From an uncultured bacterium (GTDB taxonomy: Bacteria > Babelota > Babeliae > Babelales > Babelaceae), in the NCBI GenBank assembly GCA_963848965.1, contig CAWKFG010000001.1, forward strand, positions 579,181-643,180: a stretch of DNA of 64,000 nt, given 5' to 3'. Position 1 is the stretch's first letter. Each line of letters begins with the position of its first letter. This document shows positions 604-43,445 of the stretch, piece after piece. Made by a program: the position numbers and the translations under genes. Under the pieces are notes generated by a model that had not been told where the DNA came from, did no database searches, and saw only the letters and a list, made by a program, of their open reading frames with translations.

Positions 604-1635
604 TTACTGTTTTGCTCCATGCTTCTTAAGCAATTCTACTATTTCTTTATTCCCACATTGTGTAGTAATCATTAAAGCAGTATAGCCGTATTTATCTTGA
701 ACATTAACATCAGCACCTGCATTGATGAGCATTTCTACTATATCTTTGCTCTCATCATATACAGCAAATATTAAAGCAGTTTTTCCATCTTTGTTTTGAG
801 CGTTAACATTTGTGCCCTTAGCTATAAGTAGTTCTGCAACATCCTTGTGCCCTTTGCACAAAGCATCCATGTAATGTCCCCTTCTATACACAGCATCCAT
901 AAAAGGAGTTTTATCATATTTATCTCGAGCATCAATATTAGCACCATAAGACAGAAGTATTTCTATTATATCTTTTTGACCAGCTCGAGCTGCCCAGTGT
1001 AAAGCTGTATGCCCAAGGTTATCTGCGTGATGAATATTTGCCCCAGCCTTAATAAGCGTTTCTGTTATATCCTTATGGCCTTTTTGGGCAGCTCGATGTA
1101 ATGCAGTAAGACCATACTTATCTTGAGCATTACTATTAATACCTTTAGATAAAAACTCTTGTACTGTGTTTATATCTCCTTTTTCTGCTGCATCTATAAA
1201 CTCCCGTTGCCTTAAAGACTCTAAAGCGCCTGAAGTATTTAATTCTTGTGCTATATTTTTTAGTTCTTTAGAAGGATCTTTGCTAGATAATTCACTAATA
1301 AGGATACGATTAAAATTAGGGCTGTTGAAAAAGAACGCTAAATCTTTATCGTTGGATAAAGTTTGCAGCGCATCTATGGCATTAGTATAGTCTTGTGTCT
1401 TTATAAGCTCTAATTGTTGTTGTAAGGTATTAAGAGCTTGCGAACTTTTAATGTTTGCAGCTTCCCTTATTCCTTGCAACAACTCATCGATAGTAAGAAC
1501 ATTGCTTAAATTAGTAGTAAATTTAACAAGTTCTTGCTTCAGCTCTTGCGGTAAGAGTTTTAAATAGCTCTCAAGCTGCATTGCAGATAAAGGAAGGCTA
1601 TATCCTATTACCAGAGCTATCATTATTTTCTTCAT
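604..1635 (-). CDS. Secreted ankyrin-repeat protein (family member 1)
   Basis: MKKIMI...SAMQ signal peptide, YLKLLPQEL motif, FFNSPNFNRIL domain, then about 6 G.TAL..AA..G.K.I...L...GA.VN repeats. ORF track starts at 1650. Confidence 0.92.
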   Translation of the reverse strand: MKKIMIALVIGYSLPLSAMQLESYLKLLPQELKQELVKFTTNLSNVLTIDELLQGIREAANIKSSQALNTLQQQLELIKTQDYTNAIDALQTLSNDKDLAFFFNSPNFNRILISELSSKDPSKELKNIAQELNTSGALESLRQREFIDAAEKGDINTVQEFLSKGINSNAQDKYGLTALHRAAQKGHKDITETLIKAGANIHHADNLGHTALHWAARAGQKDIIEILLSYGANIDARDKYDKTPFMDAVYRRGHYMDALCKGHKDVAELLIAKGTNVNAQNKDGKTALIFAVYDESKDIVEMLINAGADVNVQDKYGYTALMITTQCGNKEIVELLKKHGAKQ

Positions 1636-1835
1636 TAGATTGTCTTTCAAATATCTTTATTCTACAAATTTCTTGTTCTTCCACAATTTAAATAATCCAA
1701 ATTTTATAAAAATTAATTTTTATTGCATGTTTATGTTCAATTTAACTTGATTTTGGTAAAAATGCAATAATTGTGATGTTTAAGAGATGATGCATTGTTC
1801 TGCTAGATAAACACGGGTTGTAAGAAGTAGTTTTA

Positions 1836-1927
1836 TTAAGCCCTTGCATAATCTAAAGCAGTCATATCATTACTATCTCGAATATTACTATCTGCGCCCA
1901 TATTAACAAGCATGATTACTATTTCTT
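1836..1927 (-). pseudogene. Ankyrin gene 3' fragment (KEIVIMLVNMGADSNIRDSNDMTALDYARA*)
   Basis: Manual translation matches the ankyrin consensus. A 22-nt piece (gcataatctaaagcagtcatat) also occurs at about 492-513. Confidence 0.65.
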
Positions 1928-2157
1928 CAAGCATTAATAGCACCTTGATACTTTAATAAAAGAGCTACAATAGCACACTGAAAGTTATCTTATGACGAAA
2001 ATGGGCAAACACAGCTGTTTCTAATTAATCTAATTGAAGGCTTAGATGCCATTATAAGTATCGACTTTGTTTTAGTTGACGCATGATAGTTGCTGCTATA
2101 AAATTTATAAGGAGATGTAGAAATAAGTAAAAATGTACCAAAATTGTTAAGGAAGAG

Positions 2158-40463: not shown

Positions 40464-40608
40464 TGTTCTTTCCTTACATGAAAGATGGAATTTTATATTT
40501 CAAAAATAGAATTTTTATTGTAATAAGTATACTGCGCACTCAGTACAAATGCAAGCTAGCTACTTACAACTGCCTCTGCTTACCCTACAGCCACGAACCG
40601 TTTTCAAG

Positions 40609-41331
40609 TTATTGTTTTTCTTTGCTTTGTAAAAGCATGTGGTAGATCTTTGTACTTACCGAGCCTTCTCCCTGTTGACAAGCAAGATTTTGAGCAAACC
40701 AAAGCTCTCTATCAGAAACAGGAGCACTATACTTAAGCAAAAGTTCTACTAAAGAAAGATCTTTTCTACCTACTGCTATACTCAGAAAGCTATACAACAC
40801 TGGATATTTGCAAGGACAACCAGTAAAAGGATCTATTGAAGTAAGAATTTCCATGGTTGGACTAACAACACCCGTACTTATATAATTTTTTATCTCCTCA
40901 ACGACTAAAGTACTACCTGGCGCCTTAAGAAGCTCTACAAATTCCTTGTTAAAGAGTATATAAGCATGCCACCAAGAAGTTGCTGCCTCAGTGCCTATCT
41001 CTTTCACCACCTCCAAAATCATATTTGAATATACTCCTCTACAACCTCTTGAAAAGACTCGCGCCAAATGGGTAATAATATCCCCCACTTGCCGAGCGTC
41101 ACACAAAGCTTTAGAGTGATACTTTTTAAGCCAACTTACATAGTTTGATAAAGTACTCTTTTCAAGAGCTGGATTAAAAGGAAAATAACGCGCTAATTCG
41201 TCAAAGAGTTCTCTTGGAAGAAACGCTAAATATGAATGCTCTCGTTTTTCTTTGGATAAATAAGCAAGCCCCTTAAGAGAAAAGGTACATAAGATCGCCA
41301 TACTTAAAAAGACATATTTATTATTTTTCAT
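40609..41331 (-). CDS. Secreted hypothetical protein with YLAFLPREL motif and a degenerate ankyrin-like C-terminus
   Basis: Hydrophobic N-terminus. LSIAVGRKDLSLVELLLKYSA resembles one ankyrin repeat. Confidence 0.8.
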   Translation of the reverse strand: MKNNKYVFLSMAILCTFSLKGLAYLSKEKREHSYLAFLPRELFDELARYFPFNPALEKSTLSNYVSWLKKYHSKALCDARQVGDIITHLARVFSRGCRGVYSNMILEVVKEIGTEAATSWWHAYILFNKEFVELLKAPGSTLVVEEIKNYISTGVVSPTMEILTSIDPFTGCPCKYPVLYSFLSIAVGRKDLSLVELLLKYSAPVSDRELWFAQNLACQQGEGSVSTKIYHMLLQSKEKQ

Positions 41332-41522
41332 ACTAATTCTTTCTTTATTTTCTAATAAATCATCGCTAATAGAAATATATCAAATTTTTTGATATATTTC
41401 CACTTTTACCAATAGCTCCCGTAGTGCTAAAAGACAGCGCCACTTGACTCTCTCCTACAAGCTGGTACCATTAAACAATAACAATATTTACTCAAATTGC
41501 ATATAAACCAAAGGAAGCGCAT

Positions 41523-43445
41523 ATGAAAAGGCTCTTTTTACTAAGCATCTTATATATAGGTATACATAGTAGTAGCATGTATGCTATGATGCCAGATGAA
41601 AGCAATGCCCATAGAGTAGCTGCTGAGCTCGTCACTTTTTTAGCGCAAAGAGAAATTCCCAAAAGTGTCGTAACATCTCATACGGTAGATAGTAAAAAAC
41701 TATCTGCGCTGCATAAAGAGATAGAGACTCAAGAACAAGTACTGAGCAATTATCAAGAATATCGTAAGCAATTACAGCATAGATTAGAGCAGCTTAACAG
41801 AGAGTTACAATCTATTCAGAATCTTTCTTCTCCTGAAAATGCACCTCTGTTAGAAGCACTTACACAAGCAATAGAGGCACAAGAACGGATAGACAAAGCA
41901 TATACCACACAGAGCACTAGTATACAAGACCTACGACAAAAATACGAAAAACTCAAAAAATGGTATAGCGAGAAAGCAGATCTTGTACTTGTACGGAATC
42001 AGCATAATGTGCCTTTATATGCTCCGTTATCTAAGTCTTTTACCACTTTTCTAGAGAGTCTTTCTAATACACGATATACCCTTGTGCTTATAAAGACGTT
42101 CTTACCAGAAGAGACATCCTATAAACAACTTCTAAAAAAGTCTCTTTTTGGCATAGCCCTCATTGAACATATTGCACGAGCTCTTTCTCTTTCCGCTCTT
42201 GATGTTATACTCTCTTTAGCATCAGGCCAGTCGCTTAAACTTGTTGATATGTCTTTAGATACTCAAGACACTAAAGAAAAAGCAGCTGTTATCAAATGGC
42301 TTCTACAAAGACCGTCTTCGAGCACCGCTGGTATACGCCTTTTAAGAGAAGCTCTTATGCAAGAAGATGCAACGCTTGTAAAACTACTTTTAGATACAGG
42401 AATCAATCCCAATATTTGCAATGATCCTTATGATGGGACTTTACTTCTCACGTTTATTAACCATGCAGACGCAAAGAAATATCATATAGAAAGTTATAAA
42501 ACTATTCTTAAGCTCCTCTTAGATGCAGGAATTGACCCTAATGCACGAGACCAGCAAGGCAGAACTCCTCTCACGCTTGCATCAAGAATAGGCTTTACTC
42601 CTGCTGTACAAATACTTCTTGAGTATAAAGCATCTATCGATCTTCAAGATGGAAACTCTATGACAGCCTTGTTATATGCAGCAAGCAATGAGCATCTTGA
42701 ATGTATAAAACTTCTTTTAGCTGCTGGAGCAGATCCCTTTCTTGCAAATGCATGGGGTCACACACCAAGCAGTATAGCCCGTACTCTAGAGGCAGCGCAA
42801 CTCATTCAAGACCACATAAAAAAGAATTCAACAGAATGCCCATTGTGCTGTATAGATACTTATAACGCACATCTACAACCACTGGAATGTGGACACCTTT
42901 ATTGTTGTAATACGTGCCTTTTGCAACTTATAAACATAAGCATTAAAGATCATGATCCCCTTGGTAACCTCGTATGTAAACTGAAGGGCTGCTATAAGCC
43001 GTTTACGCAAAAAGATATCTCAAGAGTTCTTACCAATAAAGTACGACTTGCTCTTCTTGAAGATATCACACAAGAACAGACTATTATGCGAGATCCTCAT
43101 GGTCGCCATTGCCCTACACCAGACTGCACATTTGCCTATATCCATGACAAAGAAACGCGAAAAACAATTCATTGTCCTAAATGCAAACAATCGCATTGTT
43201 CACAATGCTTTAAAGCTCACGGAGCATCTTTAAGCTGTAACGAGTTTACAAAACAAGAAGCTCGTGAAAAAGAGCTTTTGGATAAATGGAAACAAACAGC
43301 TGATGCCCGTCCATGCCCAAAGTGCAACACAGCAATAGAGAAAAATGGCGGCTGCCCTCATATGACTTGCTCAAAATGTCGCTATGAATTTTGTTGGGAT
43401 TGTATGGGCAGATATGGCAACTGTCAATGCATAAAAAGATGGTAA
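41523..43445 (+). CDS. Secreted ankyrin + RING-IBR-RING (RBR) E3 ubiquitin ligase-like protein
   Basis: Signal peptide, coiled coil, ankyrins. RING1 CPLC..CGH..C..C..C....C, IBR CPTPDC..CPKC..C..C..H..C, RING2 CPKCNTAIEKNGGCPHMTCSKCRYEFCWDC. Confidence 0.92.
   Translation: MKRLFLLSILYIGIHSSSMYAMMPDESNAHRVAAELVTFLAQREIPKSVVTSHTVDSKKLSALHKEIETQEQVLSNYQEYRKQLQHRLEQLNRELQSIQNLSSPENAPLLEALTQAIEAQERIDKAYTTQSTSIQDLRQKYEKLKKWYSEKADLVLVRNQHNVPLYAPLSKSFTTFLESLSNTRYTLVLIKTFLPEETSYKQLLKKSLFGIALIEHIARALSLSALDVILSLASGQSLKLVDMSLDTQDTKEKAAVIKWLLQRPSSSTAGIRLLREALMQEDATLVKLLLDTGINPNICNDPYDGTLLLTFINHADAKKYHIESYKTILKLLLDAGIDPNARDQQGRTPLTLASRIGFTPAVQILLEYKASIDLQDGNSMTALLYAASNEHLECIKLLLAAGADPFLANAWGHTPSSIARTLEAAQLIQDHIKKNSTECPLCCIDTYNAHLQPLECGHLYCCNTCLLQLINISIKDHDPLGNLVCKLKGCYKPFTQKDISRVLTNKVRLALLEDITQEQTIMRDPHGRHCPTPDCTFAYIHDKETRKTIHCPKCKQSHCSQCFKAHGASLSCNEFTKQEAREKELLDKWKQTADARPCPKCNTAIEKNGGCPHMTCSKCRYEFCWDCMGRYGNCQCIKRW

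Follow-up and report, generated by a model that had tools for sequence, protein, structure and literature searches.

A run of exported effector-like genes

The DNA analysed here, which we call the window, is a stretch of 64,000 nucleotides from an uncultured bacterium of the family Babelaceae (assembly GCA_963848965.1, contig CAWKFG010000001.1, positions 579,181 to 643,180; G000:C1:579181-643180 in our numbering). The source genome (G000) is 1.73 Mb long, has a G+C content of 37%, lies on 5 contigs and is 88.7% complete, and named homologues of one of its proteins are assigned to 'Candidatus Dependentiae' and 'Candidatus Babela massiliensis'. Positions 604-43445 of the window hold a run of genes for exported ankyrin, zinc-finger, J-domain, RBR and orphan proteins, with genes for DUF4143/AAA_14 ATPases between them; housekeeping genes, among them those for an ABC transporter, RNase Y, RecA, IF-3, L20 and MiaA, follow from about 44 kb on. 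The subject of this work is a methionine (Met) that stands directly after the predicted signal peptide of many of these exported proteins.

An initial annotation of the window had listed about 22 proteins with an internal Met at this place. For 21 open reading frames (ORFs) this was borne out: the K/R-rich start is followed by a hydrophobic stretch and this in turn by [A/G/S/T/C]-Met (Table 1), in the motifs SAMQ, FSMQ, IGMQ, VGME, YSME (four times), LTME, LGME (three times), SAME, VSMQ, YGME, STME, QAMD, IGMK, YCME, YGMV and YAMM, so that the residue after the Met is mostly Glu or Gln. The remaining case, 'QAME' in the zinc-finger ORF 32671..33462 (minus strand), had to be dropped: its TTG start is preceded by a stop at a distance of 9 codons, and it has no hydrophobic leader. 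The proteins had also been described as unrelated or distantly related, which holds only in part: about 8 independent families are represented in the window, while 12 of the 21 proteins are paralogues that share one N-terminal domain family. This domain (YL.LLPQEL...) gave 8 matches in a database of 5.8 billion proteins, all of them from the source genome.

Methionine after the signal peptide across the genome

A custom gene caller predicted 1478 genes, which cover 86% of the DNA, and custom heuristics supplied the signal peptides and cut sites, so that cleavage is a predicted event throughout. The signal-peptide heuristic is lenient, flagging 730 of the 1478 ORFs with some false positives, and the choice of start codon is biased toward finding a signal peptide; 629 ORFs without signal peptide formed the comparison set. 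A strict site filter (240 sites) demanded a hydrophilic residue after the Met and undercounts: it missed an ankyrin family with the site G↓M-I/V-A in a related genome (G010) and visible sites in the ATAD3-like set described below. It was replaced for the main count by a refined site rule (270 sites), and looser counts are given alongside. All counts run over paralogues and related genomes and are non-independent.

With the refined rule, the Met site was found in 270 of the 730 signal-peptide-like ORFs of the whole genome. The looser pattern [AGSCT]M occurred at most 12 residues after the hydrophobic core in 312/730 of these ORFs versus 52/629 of the others, and elsewhere in proteins its background was 5.0% per 12-residue window. 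After the core, Met was enriched 22.1-fold over its background of 1.67%, the corresponding values for the other 19 residues being 1.4 to 4.4-fold. The Met peak lay 5 to 8 residues past the most hydrophobic 8-residue window; at +7 and +8 the Met frequency was 10.8% and 10.4%, as against 1.7% and 1.6% in the comparison set of 629 ORFs. BLAST clusters with at least one Met-site member numbered 130, of which 89 were singletons, and the strict set alone was spread over 94 clusters. A chance origin of the pattern is thus excluded genome-wide.

The predicted cleavage site

We aligned 350 sites on the Met. Position -3 was occupied by L (33%), I (12%), S (11%), T (10%), V (9%), A (7%) and C (5%), position -2 by Y (25%) and F (14%), and position -1 by A (31%), G (23%), S (21%), C (7%) and T (5%). 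Thus, A/G/S/C/T stood at -1 in 87% and L/I/S/T/V/A/C at -3 in 87% of these sites, a property that had not been used in their selection. The residue after the Met was E in 45%, Q in 12% and K in 11%, and the median position of the Met was residue 22. Among the 270 sites of the refined set, D, E, N or Q followed the Met in 200, K, R or H in 42, a small residue in 19 and a hydrophobic one in 9.

Such flanking residues are as expected for a signal peptidase I site that has its putative cut just before the Met. Further indication of this came from a (-3,-1) rule that was blind to Met: under this rule Met came first among the +1 residues, at 28% of 605 sites, and in 146 of the 240 strict sites the cut fell exactly before it. 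That cleavage might not precede the Met had been named as a reason to give up the idea; the geometry and the Met-blind cuts argue for a predicted cut at this very position. In signal peptides that obey von Heijne's (-3,-1) rule the +1 residue usually varies, with Ala frequent and Met rare, so that the prevalence of Met at +1 sets the present ones apart. Several features resemble those of canonical substrates of Sec and signal peptidase I: the charge of the n-region, the core, the small residues at -1 and -3, the length of about 21 residues and the single LepB gene. The signal peptides were 21.6 residues long with the Met and 22.0 without it; those with a Met site had on average 1.58 K/R before the core and a core hydropathy of 2.87, the same as those without, in a comparison that is partly circular since both properties are selection criteria. 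The identical length, hydrophobicity and charge thus ruled out that the Met class has signal peptides of a separate kind.

Other leader types were tried and rejected as well. A lipobox pattern, indicative of signal peptidase II, was found in just 6 of the 270 Met-site signal peptides and an RRxFL-type twin-arginine (Tat) pattern in just 3. Type IV prepilin or pseudopilin leaders (G↓F/M-T/S-L-I/L-E) were found in 0/270, and the Met class has its hydrophobic segment before the cut; four true prepilin-type leaders exist elsewhere in the genome. Only one gene for a signal peptidase I (Peptidase_S26, LepB; E = 6.7e-36, G000:C1:323737-324447) was found in this 88.7% complete genome. Because one LepB must serve both classes of signal peptide, the Met is presumably not needed for cleavage and would rather have been selected as the new N-terminal residue.

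Two exported proteins with MutS domain III (L005:10109-12508 and L006:301-2700, G000:C4) have Pro-Met-Glu some residues past a hydrophobic stretch (KPMEKE and APMEDI). Since the Met follows a Pro, they do not match a cut directly before the Met.

Protein classes that carry the methionine

To compare protein classes, labels were given to 345 signal-peptide-like ORFs from C4:1-751423 and the window, 304 of them by Pfam scan and 41 ankyrin proteins by BLAST cluster. The Met site was present in 77/97 proteins with eukaryote-like or effector-type domains (ankyrin, WD40, LRR, C2H2, RING, IBR, PP2C, J-domain and others) and in 0/20 envelope housekeeping proteins (BamA-type POTRA, SurA/PpiD, solute-binding proteins, PBP, MlaD, TolC-like, amidase, NamZ, SpoIID, MreC, pilins and others). 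It was found in 7/36 other exported enzymes or domains, in 2/30 cytoplasmic or inner-membrane proteins wrongly flagged as exported, and in 48/155 proteins with no Pfam match. The Fisher test of effector-type against envelope proteins gave p = 8e-12, a value that is too favourable, since paralogues and related genomes do not count as independent. Met is therefore not equally frequent in periplasmic proteins, which had been considered as a way in which the idea could fail. The initial claim that the Met marks effector-like proteins only must be relaxed: the class bias is real, and the word 'only' does not hold, with 20/97 effector-type proteins lacking the Met and 7/36 other enzymes having it.

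Within the window, the three exceptions named in the initial annotation among the effector-like genes, a MYND-finger protein, an ankyrin paralogue and an orphan, do lack the Met in their translations. The Met was likewise missing, as had been stated, from all six exported proteins encoded between 45,986 and 53,894 (Table 1).

Two secreted AAA ATPases and a P-loop kinase-like protein are among the enzymes that bear the Met; such proteins use ATP, which would fit action in the host cytosol. An ADP-ribosylglycohydrolase, counted as effector-type, also has the Met. Most of the enzymes without Met are either plain hydrolases or signal-anchored glycosyltransferases encoded in a glycosylation island (L017, G000:C4:303038-322605). 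This island encodes five group-1 glycosyltransferases (a further one lies in the L016-L017 range), two methyltransferases and a sulfotransferase; the N-termini of all these proteins are hydrophobic and lack a Met site, which is what uncleaved anchors should look like. The Met is also missing from three exported DXD glycosyltransferases (Gly_transf_sug; L016:17337-18257, L017:13709-14686 and L005:4685-5593, all G000:C4), which have signal-peptide-like leaders; two of them weakly match the catalytic glycosyltransferase domain of TcdA/TcdB.

The methionine is unlike a start codon

The Met could simply be an alternative start codon, as the initial annotation had pointed out. The ATG would then also initiate a cytoplasmic form without signal peptide or, in an extreme version, the upstream leader would not be translated at all. 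The codon is indeed ATG in 240/240 strict sites. However, a Shine-Dalgarno core 4 to 18 bases upstream was found at only 3/240 of them, compared with 115/240 of the upstream starts of the same genes, 183/1763 other internal ATGs and 233/629 starts of other genes. This must be read with the fact that a core precedes only 37 to 48% of the accepted starts, so that initiation without one occurs. Peaks of G and of purines at -11 to -7 appeared only before the upstream start. The residue after the strict-site Met was E in 57%, Q in 14% and K in 12%, while true starts were followed by K in 16 to 29% and by E in 6%. The Shine-Dalgarno and purine profiles and the following residue, all unlike those of real starts, indicate that the leader is translated and that the Met is not an ordinary initiation site. 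Besides, proper n- and h-regions are present in the upstream peptides, and a start codon would have no use for small residues at -1 and -3. We therefore regard an alternative start as very improbable.

Persistence of the methionine in diverged leaders

Another explanation is that the Met is a neutral relic, namely the old start codon of a gene that gained its signal peptide by 5' extension into AT-rich DNA, and that it is kept by functionless descent. Many Met-site genes are eukaryote-like and were probably acquired, the zinc-finger ORF 32671..33462 begins near 'ME' without a signal peptide, and the window's ankyrin paralogue with Ile in place of the Met still looks intact, all of which would agree with this idea. 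Met, being encoded by one codon only, should decay fastest, though, and in the ankyrin cluster [AGSCT]M was retained in 135 of the 155 members with a signal peptide although their 5' DNA can no longer be aligned. When this cluster was anchored on the Met-blind cut, Met was its most conserved column (52%), and it was still the top +1 residue (18%) when all other clusters were pooled. Furthermore, the -3/-1 pattern lies exactly at the Met rather than being scattered nearby, and E follows the site Met in 57% of cases versus 6% for present-day start Mets, which are followed by K in 16%.

Additional evidence was provided by a secreted AAA ATPase (G000:C4:258245-259801; L014:12537-14090, minus strand), which has a signal peptide and a Met site. 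It belongs to an ATAD3-like family with about 96 bacterial homologues in public data, which lack the eukaryotic N-terminal domain PF12037. Among those with a hydrophobic core, drawn from many genomes, [AGSCT]M followed the core in 54/86, and Met was the commonest residue there; in the closest third the proportion was 26/31, with quite different leaders. The 24 eukaryote-type ATAD3 homologues include 13 with a hydrophobic core, of which 0/13 had [AGSCT]M. Since they carry the extra PF12037 domain at their N-terminus, the Met of the bacterial proteins is not the start of eukaryote-type homologues. Taken together, the persistence of the Met despite diverged leaders and 5' DNA argues for selection on the Met itself, and we consider a neutral relic improbable. 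Spread of a shared promoter and signal-peptide cassette by recombination was ruled out, as recognisable similarity of the DNA from -60 to the Met was limited to 40 of 28,680 gene pairs.

The distant homologues of this ATPase are eukaryotic ATAD3 proteins (JGI names: 'ATPase family AAA domain-containing protein 3A/B'). As ATAD3 is a mitochondrial protein, the bacterial enzyme may be a candidate mitochondrion-directed effector.

Related genomes

We looked for the Met in 200-kb samples of six genomes and smaller samples of five others (pieces of 31 to 200 kb), all from one order of the phylum. With the same pipeline, ORFs with Met at +4 to +9 from the core end were counted among signal-peptide-like versus other ORFs. 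The values were 296/730 vs 61/629 for G000 itself; 23/67 vs 5/72 for G010 and 14/62 vs 6/75 for G003, both of the same family; 36/94 vs 7/60 for G034 (family f14); 23/94 vs 8/72 for G061 (f5); 15/78 vs 10/99 for G027 (f10); and 9/35 vs 3/30 for G060 (f11). They were 8/78 vs 7/84 for G029 (f12) and 2/30 vs 6/40 for G042 (f3), and, in small samples, 5/32 vs 7/44 for G019 (f2), 3/19 vs 1/15 for G021 (f4) and 1/11 vs 2/14 for G028 (f11). The Met rule is therefore genome-wide in G000 and recurs in several relatives. G029 served as a negative control of the pipeline: its Met-blind +1 position was led by Ala, and Met was outside the top nine residues. When homologues of G000 and the first six samples were paired, the two members tended to agree: both had the site in 18 cases and neither in 82, and 20 and 7 pairs were discordant. 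The residue after the Met depends on the lineage, being E, Q or K in G000, I or V in G010 and often D in G034. This is apparent in the ankyrin family of G010, with ...SL[Y/H]G↓M-[I/V]-A-ELTEE, in which the Met is kept and the next residue differs.

Export and possible roles of the new N-terminus

In the exported proteins with the site, a K/R-rich n-region would thus lead into a hydrophobic core, after which come [L/I/V]-x-[A/G/S], the predicted cut and Met-[E/Q/K], with the Met as the +1 (P1') residue of an otherwise ordinary Sec/signal peptidase I site. The single LepB would cut just before the Met, and the mature protein would start with Met-Glu, Met-Gln or Met-Lys. For the later steps, the genome encodes three tandem secretins (G000:C4:764526-774999; 1142, 815 and 789 aa by the custom caller), none with a Met site, as well as pseudopilins, and no marker of type III, IV or VI secretion was found in it, as VirB4, FHIPEP and VipB gave no match. 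With Sec and a type II-like secretin system and none of these markers, proteins delivered to the host would lose their own start and have an N-terminus made by proteolysis. Unlike type III or type IV effectors, effectors that go through Sec would acquire as new N-terminus whatever follows the cut.

Our preferred, still tentative interpretation is that Met followed by a hydrophilic residue looks like the product of translation and would be ignored by the N-degron pathways of the host, as judged by the generally known N-degron rules. The presence of D, E, N or Q after the Met in 200/270 sites agrees with the specificity of NatB. Yet NatB acts on nascent chains, and acetylation of an imported effector by this enzyme is for this reason doubtful. 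The initial annotation had proposed as roles of the Met a host-like N-terminus of the NatB type or a sorting tag; both are suggestions as to what the new N-terminus might do.

Several points weigh against the interpretation in terms of host stability. To start with, cleavage at the Met is predicted, and the Met-blind cut fell elsewhere in 94/240 strict sites, mostly 2 to 7 positions upstream after another small residue; the heuristic had wrongly flagged 30 of the 345 labelled ORFs, and the non-independence of paralogues and genomes inflates the significance of the class bias. Met followed by a bulky hydrophobic residue is a degron in yeast, for which the Met-Ile of G010 would qualify, and the classical N-end rule counts N-terminal Ala, Ser, Thr and Val as stabilising too, so that stability alone fails to single out Met. 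The effector-type proteins without Met (20/97) include a ubiquitin hydrolase, a dual-specificity phosphatase, a MYND protein, the three DXD glycosyltransferases and two J-domain proteins, and the Met is present in 7/36 other exported enzymes. Finally, some relatives show the rule weakly or not at all, no enrichment having been found in the samples of G029 and G042. The predicted nature of the cleavage, the 20 exceptions and the uneven distribution among relatives also count against the sorting tag considered next.

In that alternative, the exposed Met-[E/Q] would be read in the periplasm or at the outer-membrane step and would separate cargo of a type II-like system or of vesicles from envelope proteins. 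This would account for a class-specific rule in a genome in which only one LepB was found and no other difference between the two classes of signal peptide was seen; it would also be in line with a Met that is constant while the next residue varies by lineage (E/Q/K, I/V, often D), and with the three tandem secretins and pseudopilins and the lack of any type III, IV or VI marker among those searched. However, the usual type II cargo lacks the Met (GH18, GH1, an esterase, a nucleoside hydrolase, alpha/beta hydrolases and a trypsin-like protease), and to our knowledge no type II system reads a linear N-terminal tag. Moreover, in the accessible part of their paper, the authors of the Bacteroidetes Q-rule judged the +1 residue not to be a generic sorting signal (PMC5837995). 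On balance we find a sorting tag somewhat unlikely.

A bolder proposal, which we rate as unlikely, is that the Met-Glu/Gln N-terminus is a host-targeting signal, a bacterial counterpart of PEXEL, with which a periplasmic or secretin-associated reader would pick about 270 effectors from the Sec stream. If true, a single residue would specify which proteins make up the effector repertoire across much of a phylum.

Comparison with described systems

The rule is a real, strong and apparently undescribed one, akin in kind to the Q-rule of Bacteroidetes. According to the accessible text of the original paper, most signal peptidase I substrates have in this case Gln at +1, which is cyclised to pyroglutamate (PMC5837995); part of a further paper also deals with this rule (PMC10653852). 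Both rules concern a lineage-specific, strongly preferred residue right after the signal peptidase I cut and were found by statistics on predicted sites. They differ in the residue, Gln being enriched only 2.3-fold in the present genome versus 22.1-fold for Met, and in their scope: the Q-rule applies regardless of destination, whereas the Met rule skips envelope proteins (0/20) and marks apparently host-directed cargo. Furthermore, Met cannot cyclise, and no enzyme that would modify it is known or proposed.

A sorting tag would resemble PEXEL of Plasmodium and RxLR of oomycetes, in which a short motif after the signal peptide marks the secreted subset that is sent into the host cell; with PEXEL, it is the proteolytically made N-terminus that is the mark. 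These systems are eukaryotic and have a dedicated second protease and another motif, while the Met rule would make use of the ordinary signal peptidase.

Papers on the secretomes of Dependentiae deal with the same kind of organism and cargo as here (PMC4378268, PMC6561590 and PMC4776705, in their accessible text). In Babela massiliensis, signal peptides were reported for 79/126 ankyrin proteins, type II secretion was the sole system detected, and some signal peptides are called 'somewhat atypical' (PMC4378268, same limit); in Chromulinavorax destructans, signal peptides were reported for 78% of 98 ankyrin proteins and 44% of coding sequences (PMC6561590, partial text). Type II secretion is described as core to the TM6 phylum, with two gspD copies reported (PMC4776705, partial text). 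In the accessible text of these three papers, supplementary tables aside, there is no mention of a Met at the cleavage site, and the word 'methionine' is absent from PMC6561590. A search of the literature, again leaving supplementary tables aside, found no description of a +1 Met rule.

Dependentiae are widespread, almost uncultured parasites of protists, which apparently deliver hundreds of eukaryote-like proteins by Sec and a type II-like system alone. The rule would give a simple sequence test that tells host-directed cargo from envelope proteins, domain-less orphans included, and an experimental handle in the form of one residue whose mutation could be followed for effects on stability or location. 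It would also be a second and class-specific case, beside the Q-rule, of strong lineage-specific selection on the residue after the cut. More generally, it raises the question of how effectors that cross by Sec, and have lost their own N-terminus, cope with N-terminal quality control in the host.

An exported GNAT protein (L101:7542-8075, G000:C4, minus strand) was considered as an N-terminal acetylase and rejected, its closest solved relatives being phosphinothricin and aminoglycoside acetyltransferases and no link to N-terminal acetyltransferases having been found.

Gene content of the window

Table 1. Exported proteins of the window with and without Met after the predicted signal peptide. 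Positions are those of the window; the arrow marks the predicted cut.
Position	Strand	Product	Junction	Met codon	Remarks
604..1650	-	Ankyrin protein	...LPLSA↓MQLESY	1579-1581
2158..3183	+	Ankyrin protein	...VSTFS↓MQPKTY	2209-2211
3582..4343	+	Ankyrin protein	...VFTIG↓MQPETY	3633-3635	5' part of split gene
6241..7068	+	Ankyrin protein	...ISLVG↓MEPKTY	6295-6297
7724..8710	-	Ankyrin protein	...INIYS↓MEDPSS	8654-8656
9489..10934	-	Ankyrin protein	...ITTLT↓MEQESE	10875-10877
12959..14020	-	Ankyrin protein	...ISILG↓MEPQSY	13925-13927
14722..15744	-	Ankyrin protein	...VSTLG↓MEQKTY	15676-15678
17475..19574	-	Ankyrin protein	...YGSSA↓MEKNLD	19509-19511	699 aa, different family
20030..20770	+	Ankyrin protein	...ISILG↓MEPKTY	20084-20086
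21160..21699	+	Exported J-domain protein	...ASSYS↓MEHMNQ	21220-21222
21976..22779	+	Ankyrin protein	...VFTVS↓MQQKTY	22039-22041
23025..24266	-	Exported MYND-finger protein			No Met; label from C-terminal Cys/His pattern and MYND paralogue L019:2978-4315, ORF itself outside Pfam scan
24678..25124	+	Orphan exported protein	...SSVYG↓MEKIKE	24738-24740	No Pfam match
25114..25647	+	Orphan exported protein	...SYTST↓MEPMKE	25216-25218
25745..26134	+	Orphan exported protein	...IYAQA↓MDTAKA	25802-25804
26131..27027	-	Ankyrin protein	...FNAIG↓MKHESE	26971-26973
27180..29453	+	Orphan exported protein	...STTYS↓MEKEKG	27234-27236	757 aa
29610..30626	+	Ankyrin paralogue	...STFS-I-QPKGY		No Met; Ile where eleven paralogues have Met
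34124..34936	-	C2H2 zinc-finger protein	...CFLYC↓MEQAEG	34838-34840	Met is residue 33; from translation
34956..38585	-	C2H2 zinc-finger protein	...GFLYS↓MEQTEK	38520-38522	1209 aa
38613..40463	-	C2H2 zinc-finger protein	...SILYG↓MVPAEN	40398-40400
40609..41331	-	Orphan exported protein	...CTFSLKGLAY		No Met
41523..43445	+	Ankyrin + IBR (RBR-type) protein	...SSMYA↓MMPDES	41586-41588
45986..46405	+	Exported DUF498 protein	...SLCA↓VPRIS		No Met
46502..47272	-	Exported protein, thioredoxin-like CxxC motif	...SLFA↓APAVL		No Met; label read from translation
47452..47811	+	Small exported protein			No Met; paralogue of 47962..48360
47962..48360	+	Small exported protein			No Met
51150..52178	-	Solute-binding protein (SBP_bac_3)			No Met
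52203..53894	-	Exported protein, Cys-rich N-terminus			No Met; no Pfam match

Four AAA_14/DUF4143-type ATPase genes lie amid the effector genes (4902-6149, 11141-12457, 16038-17351 and 31028-32284). The last of these was labelled by Pfam scan and the other three by similarity of their translations; three of the four encode close paralogues.

Signs of gene decay were also seen. One gene of the ankyrin family with the shared N-terminal domain is split into the overlapping ORFs 3582..4343 and 4333..4779, and a 122-aa fragment of the same family (12464..12832) has kept the middle domain and has no signal peptide. Of three adjacent C2H2 zinc-finger ORFs at 32671-34936, the first (34124..34936) alone has a signal peptide. 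The other two, 33537..34187 and 32671..33462, are without one, and the latter starts near 'ME'. A longer gene may have broken up into these ORFs, or they may be copies that lack a leader.

The exported protein encoded by 52203-53894 has an N-terminal part that is very rich in Cys, with repeated C.D/C.N motifs, and a long C-terminal part. It recalls a Babela family described, in the accessible text, as having a Cys-rich N-terminal domain and a beta-barrel (PMC4378268). Three antisense ORFs in ankyrin genes (10261-10611, 15134-15475 and 29819-30187) encode mutually similar sequences of 113 to 122 aa and are most likely mirror-frame artefacts of the repeats rather than genes.

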